NCBI GenBank assembly: GCA_964242225.1
Contig: CAXTAE010000001.1
Span: 650,169-714,168 of the forward strand
DNA: 64,000 nt
Origin: an uncultured Acidobacteriaceae bacterium
GTDB lineage: Bacteria > Acidobacteriota > Terriglobia > Terriglobales > Acidobacteriaceae
Reading direction: 5' to 3'
In this document: one piece after another, positions 43,613 through 48,709 of the stretch
Position numbering within the stretch: the stretch's first letter is position 1
How the letters are laid out: each line of letters starts with the position of its first letter
Program-made: the position numbers and the translations under genes
The notes under the pieces: model-generated
Databases searched by the model: none
The model's input: the letters and a program-made list of their open reading frames with translations, nothing else
Told to the model about the DNA's origin: nothing

Positions 43613-44059
43613 ATGGTGCAGGTGAGGGGCGGCTTCGGCCGCCTCTTTCGTTTCAGTACAGCGACAGGAAGGACACCGATGCGGGCCGTACGAACAGCGA
43701 TGGGCGCGCTGTACCTCGTGGCCGGCGTTGGGCACTTCTTGCTAACGAAGACGTACATGGGCATCATGCCGGACTACCTGCCGGCGCACCGTGAGTTGGT
43801 TCTAATCTCCGGCGCTGCGGAGATGGCCGGTGGTTTCGGGGTACTGCTGCCTAAGACTCGGCGCGCGGCAGCCTGGGGCCTTGTGCTTCTGCTGGTCGCC
43901 GTCATGCCGGCCAACCTGTGGATGGTGCAGCACCCGGAACGTTACCCCGGGGTACCGCACTGGATACTCTGGGTGCGCCTGCCGTTACAGCTACCGCTGA
44001 TCTGGTGGGCTTGGCTTTACACCCGCAAGCCAGGCACCCTCCACGCTACGAGCGAGTAA
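43613..44059 (+). CDS. DoxX-family membrane protein
   Basis: AGVGHF, SGAAEMAGG, VMPANLWM and RLPLQLPLIWWAW motifs. Start could be 43679. Confidence 0.8.
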   Translation: MVQVRGGFGRLFRFSTATGRTPMRAVRTAMGALYLVAGVGHFLLTKTYMGIMPDYLPAHRELVLISGAAEMAGGFGVLLPKTRRAAAWGLVLLLVAVMPANLWMVQHPERYPGVPHWILWVRLPLQLPLIWWAWLYTRKPGTLHATSE

Positions 44060-44086
44060 CGGAGAAGGTGCCTACTCCGCGCCGGT

Positions 44087-44995
44087 TCAGTACCCGACGT
44101 GGTGCAGGTACAAAATCCCGCAACTTGCAACCAGGCAGTAGATGCCGAAGAGCCACCAGCGTCCGCTCTCCAGCCACGCGCTAAGCCAGCGCAGTGCCAG
44201 GATGCCGGCGAAAAAGCTGAGCACCATGCCAATAAGCGAGAAAGCGATGCTGTCATGCAAGTTGACCGGCACACCGGTCGCCGCGGCGGCGTGGGAGGCC
44301 TTGACGACGCGCAGGGCTTCGCGGGCGATGGCGGCCGGGGTCAGGATGACGGCGAGGGCGAAGGAGAAGCGCTCGGCGCGCTCGCGGGTGGCACCGGCAA
44401 GCAGGCCTACGGAGATGGTGGAGCCAGAGCGTGAGAAGCCCCGGAAGGGCAGAGCGAGCCCCTGGACAGCGCCCATCCACCCAGCCTGACCGAAGGTGAC
44501 GTTCTCGCCGGAGCGTGAGGCGGCGCGTTCATAGGCGCTGCGACTGGCGAGCTCCTCGCGGCCACGTTCCCGCAACCCGGCGATCAGGATCAGCAGTCCG
44601 GCGGCGAAAAGCGCGTAACCGACGAGGTCAAGGCGGGAGAACAGCAGCTCGATCTCGGCTTTGGGTGCACCTTTGAAGGCGGTCTTCTGGATCACCGCGA
44701 TGATCGGATAGCCGATAAGCGCGGTCAGGACTGAAGCCCAGACTGCGCGGATGGCGAAGCGCTTGAACGCGTCCGTCGTGGAGAAGTAGGCACGTTTCCA
44801 CTGGTTCCAGAAGTACACGATCACCGCAAACATGGTGCCCGTGTGCAGCATGACGAGAATCAACGTCATCTGCGGCGAAGATGGGTCGAGGCCCATCAGC
44901 TTCTCGGCAACCACGACGTGGGCGGAGCTGGAGACAGGCAGAAGTTCGGCGAGGCCTTGGACAATGGCCAGGATCAGGACTTTGAGCAGGGGCAT
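44087..44995 (-). CDS. uppP: Undecaprenyl-diphosphate phosphatase (BacA)
   Basis: IVQGLAELLPVSSSAH, HTGT and GFSRSGSTI motifs; multiple TM helices. Confidence 0.92.
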   Translation of the reverse strand: MPLLKVLILAIVQGLAELLPVSSSAHVVVAEKLMGLDPSSPQMTLILVMLHTGTMFAVIVYFWNQWKRAYFSTTDAFKRFAIRAVWASVLTALIGYPIIAVIQKTAFKGAPKAEIELLFSRLDLVGYALFAAGLLILIAGLRERGREELASRSAYERAASRSGENVTFGQAGWMGAVQGLALPFRGFSRSGSTISVGLLAGATRERAERFSFALAVILTPAAIAREALRVVKASHAAAATGVPVNLHDSIAFSLIGMVLSFFAGILALRWLSAWLESGRWWLFGIYCLVASCGILYLHHVGY

Positions 44996-45103
44996 ACAGG
45001 CCCGATTCTAGCCGCGATAGAAGCAAAGTGGACCGAAGGCGTGCGGATCGGATCCCATTTCGGAACCGCTAGGTGGTGAATACCCCACCGGTCACCAGTC
45101 ACG

Positions 45104-45448
45104 GTGACGAAGGAGCTCTATCTAGGTCTGCCACCGGGTGCAATGATGGCTCGCATGTTTGCTGCTGCGCAGAGAGCGATATCCACGGTGCCGGGCACCT
45201 TCACCCTGCCACCTGCTATGGGGACGAAGGGGCTTGAACCCGCCTCTTTGTGGCTTCCACACCGTCTGGCGAAGGTGGCCCTATTTCTGGCGCTGCTGTT
45301 GCTGGCTTCGTTATGGGCGATCTCGAACGTCCGCTACTGCGACCACCTCAGCGCAGCCGACCGAGCGCGATCGTCGTACACAAGCCCAATGGATCAGGTG
45401 TCACAACCAGTGCCAGCACGTTCCGAGCTGGCCTCCGCGCGGCGGTGA
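45104..45448 (+). CDS. Possible small membrane protein
   Basis: ORF with one strong hydrophobic segment (VALFLALLLLASLWAI); start uncertain. Confidence 0.4.
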   Translation: MTKELYLGLPPGAMMARMFAAAQRAISTVPGTFTLPPAMGTKGLEPASLWLPHRLAKVALFLALLLLASLWAISNVRYCDHLSAADRARSSYTSPMDQVSQPVPARSELASARR

Positions 45449-45537
45449 GATTGTGCGGAAGTGATCCTGCGCAGACCACACCACTCCCTTGTTATCGAGA
45501 CAACTGTTTGCCTGGGTGATTGCAGAGCTTGGCTTTT

Positions 45538-45613
45538 TGGAGCACCGGGTGGGGATCGAACCCACGAATACTGGTTTTGCAGACCAGCGCGTTAGCCACT
45601 TCGCCACCGGTGC
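45538..45613 (-). tRNA. tRNA-Cys(GCA)
   Basis: Minus strand GCACCGG...CTGGT-CTGCAAA-ACCAG...GTGGG-TTCGATC-CCCAC-CCGGTGC-T-CCA; 76 nt; U73 discriminator; CCA encoded. Confidence 0.97.
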
Positions 45614-45702
45614 TCATCGTGCTGCAACTGCGTCAGCGGGTCAGCAAGCGGGACTAAGTCGAGCTTAGACCGTCTGAAGAGTCACGCCTACGCTGCAGCC
45701 AA

Positions 45703-46359
45703 CTAGTGCGGCTGTGCCGTCGTTCGCAGATACGGCTTCACGGTTTTGTAGCCCGGGAAGATCCTCTCCGCTTCCTCGTTCGACACGGCGCCGGTGATGA
45801 TCACATCGTCGCCCTGCTTCCAATTGGCTGGCGTGGCCACCTTATGCTTCGCGGTGAGCTGCATCGAGTCCAGCACGCGCAGAACCTCGTCAAAGTTGCG
45901 CCCCGTAGTCATGGGATAGGCGAGGTGCAGCTTGATGCGCTTGTCCGGGCCGACGATGAAGACTGTGCGCACGGGCGCATTGAGCGCCGCGGTGCGCCCA
46001 CCCTCTACCTCTCCGGCATCGGCCGGCAGCATGTCATACAGCTTGGCAATCTTTAACTCGGGGTCGCCGATCATGGGGTAGTTAACGGCGAAGCCGCCCA
46101 CGTCCTCAATGTCCTTGGCCCATTTGGCGTGGCTCTCCACGGGGTCGAGCGAGAGGCCGATGACCTTGGCCCCGCGCGCAGCAAACTGCGACTCCAGGCT
46201 GGCCATCGCCCCGAGTTCCGTCGTGCAGACCGGGGTGAAGTCCTTCGGGTGCGAAAAGAGCACCGCCCAGCCGTCGCCGATCCATTCGTGGAAGTGAATG
46301 GTGCCTTGTGTGGTCTCTGCCGTGAAGTCCGGGGCAATGTCGTTGATGCGAAGTGACAT
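45703..46359 (-). CDS. 1-Cys peroxiredoxin (Prx6/LsfA-like)
   Basis: FSHPKDFTPVCTTE, GRNFDEVLRVLDSMQL and ATPANW motifs; only one Cys in 218 aa; aaagga RBS before ATG 46359. Confidence 0.93.
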   Translation of the reverse strand: MSLRINDIAPDFTAETTQGTIHFHEWIGDGWAVLFSHPKDFTPVCTTELGAMASLESQFAARGAKVIGLSLDPVESHAKWAKDIEDVGGFAVNYPMIGDPELKIAKLYDMLPADAGEVEGGRTAALNAPVRTVFIVGPDKRIKLHLAYPMTTGRNFDEVLRVLDSMQLTAKHKVATPANWKQGDDVIITGAVSNEEAERIFPGYKTVKPYLRTTAQPH

Positions 46360-46468
46360 CTGATCGTTTCCTTTTTGGGAGCCTTCAGCCCCCAAGGTAC
46401 AAGTCTGGAGCGTTGCCTGCAGTTTTAGATTCGGGCGGCGCCTCCGCGTTGCAGGGTGGTGGACAAGC

Positions 46469-46505
46469 AAAAAACCCACCCGGCGGCGGCGGCCTGGGTG
46501 GGTCT
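46469..46505 (-). terminator. Attenuator terminator upstream of the peroxiredoxin
   Basis: Minus strand AGACCCACCC-AGGCCGCCGCCGCC-GGGTGGGT-TTTTT: at least an 8-bp GC stem followed by a U-tract, 109 nt before the prx ATG. Confidence 0.85.
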
Positions 46506-46531
46506 GATTTGCGTTCTGACGTCTTTGTTTG

Positions 46532-46618
46532 CTACCGTCTCGTCGCGCTCATCCCGCACACCCAGGCCCGTACACAGCAACAGGAGCGGAGGGAGGTCGG
46601 GATCGAGAGCGAATGCAT
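46532..46618 (-). CDS. Cys-rich leader peptide MHSLSIPTSLRSCCCVRAWVCGMSATRR (putative cysteine attenuator leader)
   Basis: Hand-translated ATG(46618)...TAG(46532); tandem TGT TGC TGT at codons 13-15 and TGC at codon 21; ends 26 nt before the terminator. SD is weak (AGGA, 13-nt spacing). Confidence 0.75.
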   Translation of the reverse strand: MHSLSIPTSLRSCCCVRAWVCGMSATRR

Positions 46619-46844
46619 GGCGTGAGGTAAGTCCTGGATGGAACAGAATTTGCACCGCGGCCGACGCCTTGCATCGGCGCAGGGCCGGTTTGCCCCGCTG
46701 CGGTGATCCCAAGGTACGGACAGGCGGCTCTCCTGTCAACCCGCGCGAGCCTCACCCCCGCGAAGGCGGAGGGAGTCAGTTGAACGGGCCAGCTCAGCAT
46801 GGCGCGCCGCCGCGCCGCAGTGGCTAGCTGGGTAGACTCGATGC

Positions 46845-47753
46845 ATGAAAAGAGAGCTCCCGTACACGGTGCTGGATGTCTTCGCAGAACGTGCCCTTGA
46901 AGGCAATCCGCTGGCGGTCTTTCATGATGGCCGCGGCCTCACTGACGCCACGATGCAGGCCCTGGCGCGTGAAACCAATCTTTCCGAAACCACATTTGTC
47001 CTGCCGGCGGGCGATCCGGACGAGGATATTCGCGAGGGGGTCCGAGTGCGCATCTTCACCACGGAGGAGGAGCTTCCCTTCGCCGGCCACCCCACCCTGG
47101 GTACGGCGAGCTGGCTGCACCTGAACCACCCTGCGCTGCGGGGCGCGGAGACTGTGACGCTGCGGCTGAAGGTGGGACCCGTCCCCGTGCGGTTCGAGCG
47201 CTCCACGGATCCGGCGGCGGATGGAAGCGTCTACGGCACCATGCGGCAACCCGACCCGGTCTTCGGGGAAGATTTCTATCCCACCGAGGTCGCAGCCGTC
47301 CTCGGCATGCCGGAAGCCGCTCTGCTGCCGGGCTACAGGCCCCAGGCAGTCTCGACAGGCAATCCCTTCTGTATCGTCGCGCTGCGCTCCGTCGAGGCGC
47401 TCGGGGAGCTCGCGATCCCCCAGCGCGAGGCGATGCCGTGGCTGCGGGCGCGCGGCATCCGGTGGTTCTATTGCATTGCTCCGGACCCGGCAGTCCCTGA
47501 CGTCTGGCGCGCCCGCATGCAGTGGAGCCGCGGGGAAGACCCAGCTACGGGCTCCGCCGCGGGGCCGTGTATCGCCTGGCTGGTGCGAATGGGCCTGGCC
47601 GCGTCGGGAGCTCCCGTCACCCTCAACCAAGGCGTCGAAATCCTGCGCCCAAGCCGCTTGACGGTGCAGTCGACACTGACGGGCGAGACAGTCACTAACA
47701 CTTTTGTGGGAGGTCGCACCGTTCCTGTGGCATCGGGACGCTTCTTCCTCTGA
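46845..47753 (+). CDS. PhzF-family isomerase/epimerase
   Basis: DVFAERALEGNPLAV, NLSETTF, ELPFAGHPTLG and EDPATGSAAG motifs. Confidence 0.9.
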   Translation: MKRELPYTVLDVFAERALEGNPLAVFHDGRGLTDATMQALARETNLSETTFVLPAGDPDEDIREGVRVRIFTTEEELPFAGHPTLGTASWLHLNHPALRGAETVTLRLKVGPVPVRFERSTDPAADGSVYGTMRQPDPVFGEDFYPTEVAAVLGMPEAALLPGYRPQAVSTGNPFCIVALRSVEALGELAIPQREAMPWLRARGIRWFYCIAPDPAVPDVWRARMQWSRGEDPATGSAAGPCIAWLVRMGLAASGAPVTLNQGVEILRPSRLTVQSTLTGETVTNTFVGGRTVPVASGRFFL

Positions 47754-48256
47754 GGCTGAAATTGTTATGCACAGGGTGGGGAACCCGAAACGTCAATAAC
47801 ACCAACGGTTCCCATGAACCCGGTGGATCGGCGGACGACAAAAACGTGAATCTTCGCTTTTGTTTCGAGTTGCCGCAGGCGGTTCATTCTCCGTATGCTC
47901 AGGCAATCGCAACAGGGAACGTTACCTCTCATCCCTGCAAGATCCGTACCTGATTCGCTAAACATTTCAGGCAACTTCGGCGGACTCCTGCCCGTGTTCG
48001 ACCCCTTGCGCCCGCCATCCGGTGAGCAGCAGCGGTCCCCCGGGATGACCGCCCTACGTGTATCGGGTTGACTCCCGATATGCGAACGCCCCGCCACGTC
48101 TCTTGAGTTCTCCGGGGCTTGTTTCAGCATTTTGCTGGAACGTCGCTGCTGTGTCCTCCACGACGCAGAAGCCCCCGCTTGACCCTAATCTCCGGCATGC
48201 GTTTCCTCGCAGACCGAACCAGCACGCCGGACAGCCGGTAAGGAAGCCAAGACCCG

Positions 48257-48709
48257 ATGCGCCCTCGCAAGACGATTCTTTGTGTTGAAGATAACGAGCA
48301 AATTCTGTCCGTTCGCAAGTTCATGCTGGAGACCCGCGGTTACCGTGTGGTGGCGATGACGACCGCGACCGCGGCACTCGAATTCCTGGAAGGCGCGCTC
48401 CCTGGCAGCGTTGACCTCCTACTGGCCGACCTGGTCCTGCCCGGCATGGATGGCAATGAGCTGGTTCGGCGCGCGAAGAGTCTGCACCCGACGCTCCCGA
48501 CCATGCTGGTATCGGGAATGGTCTCCAACTTCGATCGTGCTGCGGCCGCCGATGTCTTTTTGCCCAAGGGTGCGTGCACCGCGGCCGAGATGCTCGACCG
48601 CATTCGCCTGCTCGTGGCGCGTAAGCGGGGGCCGAAGAAGCAGGTGCCGGCGGAACGGCCCGTCGAGCGCCCGGCGCTGGGGCCGCTGCAGGTAGCCTTG
48701 GCGCGGTAG
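48257..48709 (+). CDS. Stand-alone response regulator receiver protein
   Basis: ILCVEDNE, LLLADLVLPGMDG (phospho-Asp) and FLPKG; basic Pro-rich tail; no output domain. Confidence 0.88.
   Translation: MRPRKTILCVEDNEQILSVRKFMLETRGYRVVAMTTATAALEFLEGALPGSVDLLLADLVLPGMDGNELVRRAKSLHPTLPTMLVSGMVSNFDRAAAADVFLPKGACTAAEMLDRIRLLVARKRGPKKQVPAERPVERPALGPLQVALAR

Follow-up and report, generated by a model that had tools for sequence, protein, structure and literature searches.

A putative cysteine-attenuated operon joining a single-cysteine peroxiredoxin gene to an accessory tRNA-Cys in Acidobacteriaceae

The stretch of DNA considered here (the window) is 64,000 nucleotides of contig CAXTAE010000001.1 from an uncultured Acidobacteriaceae bacterium, a soil acidobacterium whose genome assembly has 39 contigs, 3.9 Mb and 62% G+C. 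On the minus strand of the window, the gene of a 1-Cys peroxiredoxin (prx) is preceded by a short open reading frame (ORF) with a run of Cys codons and by an intrinsic terminator, and is followed by a gene for tRNA-Cys(GCA). We propose that these elements constitute one transcription unit, an operon in which Cys attenuation governs both a single-cysteine peroxiredoxin and an accessory tRNA-Cys. From comparison of sequences across the family, we put the probability of this reading at roughly 0.7. A first-pass annotation of the window had placed the leader, terminator, prx and tRNA in the same orientation, and all four were indeed found on the minus strand. The elements of the unit are as follows.

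46739-46711, minus strand: predicted promoter of the unit, with -35 TTGACA (46739-46734), a 17-nt spacer and -10 TACCTT (46716-46711)
46705-46653, minus strand: structured element in the 5' untranslated region (5' UTR), a closing helix CACCGC/GCGGTG around two hairpins
46618-46532, minus strand: leader ORF of 28 codons, MHSLSIPTSLRSCCCVRAWVCGMSATRR
46568-46559, minus strand: antiterminator arm (region 2), GGCCTGGGTG, complement of CACCCAGGCC (46500-46491) in the 5' arm of the terminator
46503-46469, minus strand: intrinsic terminator, a CCCACCC...GGGTGGG stem followed by TTTTTT; the scan reported 46492-46476 plus GTTTTTTGCT
46359-45703, minus strand: prx, a Prx6-type 1-Cys peroxiredoxin of 218 amino acids
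45702-45617, minus strand: intergenic hairpin with no U-tract, ending 3 nt 5' of the tRNA
45613-45538, minus strand: tRNA-Cys(GCA), identified by ARAGORN, with U73, an encoded CCA and an A13-A22 mismatch

The unit would thus be read in the order promoter, structured 5' UTR, Cys-codon leader ORF, terminator, 1-Cys peroxiredoxin, hairpin and accessory tRNA-Cys. When Cys-tRNA-Cys is plentiful, a ribosome translating the leader would pass the Cys run, reach the end of the leader and cover its GGGTG segment, the CCCACCC/GGGTGGG terminator would form, and transcription would stop. When Cys-tRNA-Cys is scarce, the ribosome would stall on the first Cys codons, allowing GGGTG to pair with CCCACCC as an antiterminator, and RNA polymerase would continue through prx and the tRNA. 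RNase P would then excise the tRNA, and the upstream hairpin would stay behind to protect the prx mRNA at its 3' end. The outputs would be a peroxidase that needs only one cysteine and more of the molecule that the leader senses, amounting to negative feedback whenever tRNA-Cys, not cysteine itself, is limiting. That antitermination could yield extra tRNA-Cys was suggested in the first-pass annotation, and the comparative evidence given below supports the suggestion, with prx and the tRNA presumed to be co-transcribed.

Linkage of the peroxiredoxin and the accessory tRNA

Within the genus of the source organism, the tRNA lies 15-90 nt 3' of prx, in the same orientation, at all 20 orthologous loci (79-100% protein identity); at two apparent exceptions in the genus the tRNA is cut, by the end of a contig at one and by an assembly gap at the other. 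Loci were also ascertained by the tRNA only: its first 48 bases were searched for in a single genome of each species. At least 120 loci matched, nearly all of them in Acidobacteriaceae (Granulicella, Terriglobus, Edaphobacter, Tunturiibacter, Bryocella, Silvibacterium, Acidicapsa, Paracidobacterium and others), and the few in bins labelled otherwise are probably mis-binned. Among the loci listed, a peroxiredoxin lies directly 5' of the tRNA in about 100 of the 107 that have enough upstream sequence. About 78 of these peroxiredoxins are of the Prx6 type, and about 20 belong to a different single-Cys subfamily, which is PRK13189-like (NCBIfam), 35-38% identical to the window prx, and likewise has a single Cys. 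Beyond the tRNA the flank is not conserved: uppP, the downstream neighbor in the window, follows the tRNA at only 1 of 79 loci. The conserved block ends at the tRNA, and general synteny does not account for the adjacency. The first-pass annotation had proposed the synteny of prx with tRNA-Cys as a check, and the adjacency turns out to be kept in more than 100 species from many named genera. As judged from these comparisons, it is far beyond chance.

The loci of the PRK13189-like subfamily (L032, L041, L047, L055, L068, L072, L080, L102 and others) often have a distinct type of leader (…HHPGSLCCSCC.CC..RVCF) and a terminator with a weaker U-tract.

The strongest result comes from the loci that lack prx. 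No peroxiredoxin precedes the tRNA at 16 testable loci, and at about 11 of them a Cys-run leader lies directly 5' of the tRNA (MGSVCCCCCAGEGVEN, MTIAISHTTCCCCDDTAVCG and MTMMLNMTCLCRCCCCDVTGVCG are examples). Most of these leaders are followed by a CCCACCC...GGGTGGG-Tn terminator, the motif ending 14-15 nt before the tRNA at L051, L111 and L131. The leader-terminator-tRNA arrangement without prx is also present in genome G144. Loci L053 and L133 retain a remnant of the second peroxiredoxin type, which indicates that the leader-then-tRNA forms arose by loss of prx. Because leader and terminator stand directly before the tRNA where prx is absent, the link among the three is maintained on its own. 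Such sequences are hard to reconcile with a tRNA that is a mere neighbor. The proposed operon is thus supported by the survival of the adjacency through both replacement of the peroxiredoxin subfamily and loss of the peroxiredoxin.

The linked tRNA is a second copy. Of the 43 tRNA genes in the genome, two are for tRNA-Cys(GCA). The housekeeping copy is on another contig (C4:139955-140029), directly after tRNA-Gly(GCC) and behind a good promoter-like sequence. The two copies are 71% identical, with differences that include the acceptor, D and T stems, and have in common the GCA anticodon, U73, the encoded CCA, the anticodon loop and the A13-A22 mismatch, the last being typical of tRNA-Cys. The prx-linked copy is the single tRNA that ARAGORN finds in the whole window, and the Rfam tRNA model matches it (45538-45613) at 66.3 bits. 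Over 36 distinct variants of the accessory tRNA, 99.9% of cloverleaf cells remain paired, with compensatory changes at 7 pairs vs. 4.3 expected by shuffling. By these evolutionary criteria, the accessory tRNA is a working tRNA under purifying selection. A second, dedicated cysteinyl-tRNA synthetase (CysRS) was not found in the genome, which has one PF01406 gene above the cut-off.

The distribution of the two tRNAs was compared in 41 genomes, namely the source genome, 24 relatives within the genus and 16 genomes of the sister family. The tRNA-Gly-linked tRNA-Cys is present in nearly all; the prx-linked one is confined to the 20 genus genomes with an orthologous prx and found in every one of them, being absent from the 5 genus genomes without that ortholog and from 16 of the 16 sister-family genomes. 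Being confined to genomes with an orthologous prx, the prx-linked tRNA can be regarded as an accessory gene that travels with prx. Among 301 genomes sampled evenly over the family, the accessory tRNA was found in 48 genomes, representing 24 of 142 genera, and a reversed control pattern was found in none. In the same 301 genomes, 27 matches to an attenuator pattern lie 55-960 nt 5' of the accessory tRNA on the same strand (the coordinates were matched by hand); the other matches are unrelated sequences, the background being 13 reversed-pattern matches.

Two observations concern integrity of the tRNA-Cys genes. At locus L018 (G004:C96), just after prx, the accessory tRNA is broken by a run of N, and its last ~30 bases are repeated ~220 nt further on, which looks like either a gap in the scaffold or the integration of an element at the tRNA 3' end. 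The housekeeping tRNA-Cys has additional, partial copies of its 3' half in several genomes, e.g. G003, of the kind that integrated elements leave behind.

The peroxiredoxin itself is of the Prx6 type, with an AhpC-TSA fold (Pfam, 4.6e-30), a 1-cysPrx_C domain (7.7e-12), the motif PVCTTE and no resolving Cys. The peroxidatic Cys in PVCTTE is the sole Cys of the entire protein. NCBIfam peroxiredoxin models match it, and the nearest solved structures in the Protein Data Bank are 6p0w, 1prx and 5b6m (E 1e-60 to 1e-76).

Leader, terminator and promoter

The window leader has three Cys codons in a row, TGT TGC TGT, at 46582-46574 and one more at 46558-46556; the leaders of relatives have 3-15 Cys codons at the corresponding place, e.g. 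MTLTVSNSMLCCCGCCCCCGPTRVSG. The terminator lies 102 nt 5' of the prx start. What is said here about terminators refers to a motif-based set of 76 distinct leader-to-terminator sequences; a lenient hairpin rule was not relied on. The 76 sequences align, and have in common the Cys run, a near-invariant CGGGTG(T/A)G just before the stop, and the CCCACCC/GGGTGGG terminator. The leader peptides are otherwise variable: the only features that they share are the Cys run and a C-terminal 'RV' that spells CGGGTG, which argues for constraint on the leader at the RNA level. When the 3' arm of the terminator is withheld from folding, most of the displayed folds join CCCACCC to the GGGTG that lies 5-11 nt 5' of the stop. 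In the same fold of the window sequence, the CCCACCC arm pairs with 46568-46559, where the complement to 46500-46491 is perfect over 10 bp. The antiterminator and terminator arms are nearly invariant, so that covariation cannot be scored. RNAalifold, applied to gappy alignments of the 5' UTR and the leader, recovered only the terminator or one hairpin.

The terminator motif is unique in the source genome. A strict attenuator pattern occurs once per genome and always at the prx/tRNA locus (11 of 41 relatives matched, all of them in the genus). A search of Rfam (E<=1, 44000-48500) matched nothing besides the tRNA, the 5' UTR element included.

Other Cys-rich ORFs were sought in the source genome. 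Runs of at least three TGY codons gave 463 matches, mostly out-of-frame in this genome of 62% GC, and are uninformative. A stricter scan (ATG-started ORF of at most 45 amino acids, Cys cluster, terminator) left three credible sites. One genomic location (contig C6:142094-143613) has a second Cys-run leader, MKQTLTAAALCCMCCCMPRCCAGACLL, with a TTGACA-N17-TAGGCT promoter and a strong terminator after it, followed by a small ORF and then by a YeiH-family membrane protein (PF03601, E 2.7e-73); this leader may mark another member of a cysteine-sensing regulon. At C7:118482-118559 there is a lone Cys-rich ORF of 25 codons, MKKKCTSACTCTCPVCVGGGCCGCC, with a terminator of dG -24 and no same-strand gene downstream, which looks like a gene for a small Cys-rich peptide, not an attenuator. 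Enrichment of TGT, the rarer codon, in leaders (36% vs. 26% in long ORFs) is too small to base an argument on. With a loose pattern, two further recurrent leader-like sequences ending in CCCACCGCCAG...GGTGGG terminators were seen in the 301 family genomes, one (GGGTGT.TCCACTGGCGC...GCTGCTGACCTAAG) in at least six genomes and the other (GGGTGCCTGGTGAGCTGAGA...) in three. They may be other attenuators or riboswitch-like elements.

Promoters were scored for likeness to sigma-70 sites (TTGACA, 16-18 nt, TAnnnT; maximum 13). Upstream of the leader, a score of at least 10 was found in 78 of 104 loci, and of at least 9 in 100 of 104. A stricter scan of the E. coli type missed the window promoter, whose -10 agrees at only 3 of 6 positions. 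The 5' UTR element stands 3' of the predicted transcription start and 5' of the leader ORF, and one of its hairpin loops is CAAAC(C)UGC. In an alignment of 61 distinct 5' UTRs, the ACCGC...GCGGT frame and the hairpins are kept with changes that preserve pairing. The neighboring gene on the far side of the promoter is

46845-47753, plus strand: PhzF-family gene, divergent from the leader promoter

and a phzF-like gene is found 5' of the unit in 54 of 85 loci, including loci without prx or without the leader.

The gap before the tRNA and competing explanations

The prx-tRNA gap of the window measures 89 nt (45702-45614). The first-pass annotation had seen no strong stem plus U-tract there, and a terminator scan of the minus strand of the gap likewise gave no site. 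In relatives, gaps are 15-274 nt long (median 58), some of them just 15-28 nt. Their hairpins (113 gaps; median dG -25, median z -3.2, z < -2 in 76%) are not conserved in sequence, mostly end 0-7 nt before the tRNA +1, and are followed by a T-tract in 4 of 113. With gaps down to 15 nt and hairpins right next to the tRNA, any promoter of the tRNA must read through the gap hairpin. The simplest role of this hairpin would be to protect the 3' end that the prx mRNA acquires when RNase P frees the tRNA.

In the 200 nt 5' of the tRNA, none of 104 loci has a promoter score of at least 10, the maximum being 9, and the 115 loci compared share no promoter-like motif at a fixed distance from it. A promoter-like cluster 70-79 nt 5' of the tRNA, with weak matches to -35 (TAGAAA) and -10 (AAGGAT), proved to be mostly the conserved coding 3' end of the second peroxiredoxin type. 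The sequence CACGAT, which the first-pass annotation had considered as a possible promoter of the tRNA, is at 45621-45616 and ends 2 nt before the tRNA +1. It is geometrically impossible in this role, because transcription from a -10 box at that place would begin within the tRNA. A lenient terminator scan 3' of the tRNA (hairpin dG <= -9 plus a T-rich heptamer) was discarded, with 57 of 111 positive vs. 50 of 107 control windows inside prx.

Several points weigh against the operon as proposed. The window leader is a weak example: it is among the Cys-poorest (3+1 codons), and its 3' end is frame-shifted, displacing the stop 18 nt further downstream, to 20 nt past the antiterminator arm. It is compatible with the model, though among the weakest copies: a ribosome anywhere between the arms prevents their pairing. 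No Shine-Dalgarno-like sequence is present at the leader ATG, and translation of the leader is assumed. The long, imperfect gap hairpin of the window (dG -31.8) has a z of -1.08, which is not significant vs. shuffles, and the strong hairpins in the gaps of relatives could be partial terminators of the U-less kind. Promoter scores before the tRNA are slightly above an intragenic control, and promoter types of Acidobacteria are poorly known. No leader could be detected at about five tRNA loci (L033, L094, L124, L150 and one more), which indicates that the tRNA can be expressed in another way. Finally, if cysteine itself is limiting, extra tRNA would be of little help to charging.

Some of these points could be accommodated if the tRNA had its own unrecognised promoter, located in the gap or within the last part of prx, with the gap hairpin ending the prx transcript and the adjacency being inherited gene order. 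The U-less hairpins, the few leaderless loci and the slightly raised scores before the tRNA all fit this explanation. We nevertheless consider it unlikely. As described above, promoter-like motifs are not conserved at a fixed distance, and the hairpin would have to be read through anyway. The presence of leader and terminator directly before the tRNA at prx-less loci, the perfect co-occurrence of prx and tRNA in the genus, the occupation of one slot by two peroxiredoxin subfamilies, and the lack of conservation beyond the tRNA all weigh against it.

An altogether different role of the leader can also be considered, in which the Cys-rich ORF would encode a functional micropeptide that binds metals or is redox-active, or act through its nascent chain as a switch for metals or oxidants, the tRNA being a passenger. 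The source genome does have a free-standing Cys-rich mini-ORF with a strong terminator (C7:118482), and the gene regulated is for an antioxidant enzyme, not for cysteine synthesis. However, the peptide is free to vary outside the Cys run, and its 'RV' is the CGGGTG that pairs with the terminator arm, which is the signature of a codon sensor; the constancy of tRNA-Cys as partner also fits codon sensing. We hold this explanation to be highly improbable. The least probable of those weighed accepts co-transcription of the unit but has the accessory tRNA-Cys serve outside ordinary decoding, as the donor for a Cys-tRNA-dependent transferase or as a spare isodecoder resistant to the damage or cleavage that strikes the housekeeping tRNA-Cys. 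Consistent with such a job, 29% of its positions differ from the housekeeping tRNA, the acceptor, D and T stems included, and the gene is accessory, being found in only 48 of 301 family genomes. Mycobacteria have toxins whose cleavage of tRNA-Cys makes ribosomes stall at Cys codons (PMC13096801). Against it, the tRNA has orthodox tRNA-Cys features (GCA, U73, A13-A22 and the housekeeping anticodon loop), the genome has one CysRS, and no conserved partner enzyme adjoins the tRNA.

To return to the Cys-attenuated operon, the accessory, second-copy status of the tRNA makes feedback more plausible. Ribosomes stalled on the leader would induce a second tRNA-Cys isodecoder together with a one-Cys peroxidase, and the tRNA would be a self-regulating spare. 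Whether the feedback on the sensor is physiologically meaningful we judge, from the sequence comparisons, to be an evenly balanced matter. The presence of a peroxiredoxin suggests that the natural trigger is oxidative loss of cysteine, of CysRS activity or of tRNA-Cys.

Relation to known systems and significance

Transcription attenuation by leader peptides is classical in E. coli and Salmonella, where it operates in trp, his, leu, thr, pheA and ilv. The acidobacterial unit resembles these attenuators in its tandem codons for one amino acid, in the terminator before the genes, and in an antiterminator that overlaps the 3' end of the leader ORF. Unlike in the classical cases, cysteine would be sensed, the outputs would be a peroxiredoxin and a tRNA gene instead of biosynthetic enzymes, the tRNA that reads the regulatory codons would itself be a product, and a structured element precedes the leader ORF. 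T-box riboswitches also sense tRNA charging and act by antitermination; they bind tRNA directly and need no leader ORF. The unit would be similar in sensing the charging state of a specific tRNA and in antitermination, but it has a leader ORF and no Rfam T-box match. A T-box was considered and rejected for want of that match, and half of the relatives have CGGA in place of the UGGA found close to the leader stop.

The closest parallel in the amino acid sensed is found in mycobacteria, where polycysteine small ORFs (sORFs) are Cys-responsive attenuators of a 'Cys ribulon' (Canestrari et al., 2020, 10.1101/834739; Rv2334A and others, PMC13096801). These sORFs are leaderless and control genes of cysteine metabolism, and the best-studied one frees a ribosome-binding site, thus acting on translation (10.1101/834739; PMC13096801). 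Runs of Cys codons couple expression to charged tRNA-Cys in mycobacteria and would do so in the acidobacterial unit, with a link to redox and thiols in both. However, unlike the leaderless mycobacterial sORFs, the acidobacterial ORF lies ~85 nt inside the predicted transcript and is followed by a canonical U-tract terminator, and no tRNA gene is reported among the mycobacterial targets.

Transcripts that join an mRNA to a tRNA are known from E. coli, in secG-leuU and operons of the tufB type, and are separated by RNase P (Mohanty and Kushner, PMC2241853). As in secG-leuU, the acidobacterial tRNA comes right after a protein gene of the same orientation and no credible promoter separates the two; the acidobacterial gap also lacks a canonical terminator. 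The secG-leuU and tufB operons differ in having no attenuator keyed to the codons of the tRNA itself. The secG-leuU mRNA is rapidly degraded after cleavage, whereas in the acidobacterial unit a hairpin abuts the predicted cleavage site. In the literature searched, neither a tRNA gene under a leader peptide rich in its own codons nor an account of the acidobacterial unit was found.

The idea is directly testable, as cultured carriers exist and the two tRNA-Cys species, with differences at about 22 positions, are distinct enough in sequence to be measured separately. Carriers with prx include Terriglobus roseus DSM 18391, Tunturiibacter psychrotolerans, T. lichenicola and Granulicella sp. L60; in Edaphobacter modestus DSM 18101 a prx fragment is at the edge of the stretch examined. 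In Granulicella sp. dw_53 and Acidicapsa dinghuensis, the leader stands directly 5' of the tRNA.

Genes for tRNAs are usually viewed as housekeeping genes under growth-rate control. If the proposed operon is real, it would provide the first known case of a tRNA gene controlled by leader-peptide attenuation on its own codons, in a unit conserved in at least 24 genera of Acidobacteriaceae, and would add to the few inducible second isodecoders known in bacteria. It would represent a new regulatory logic, the homeostasis of one charged tRNA as sensed by the ribosome. The constant pairing with two subfamilies of single-cysteine peroxiredoxins would tie thiol and oxidative stress to the translation of Cys codons, an echo of the mycobacterial work on Cys-sORFs and VapC4, but in an unrelated phylum and by way of transcription termination.

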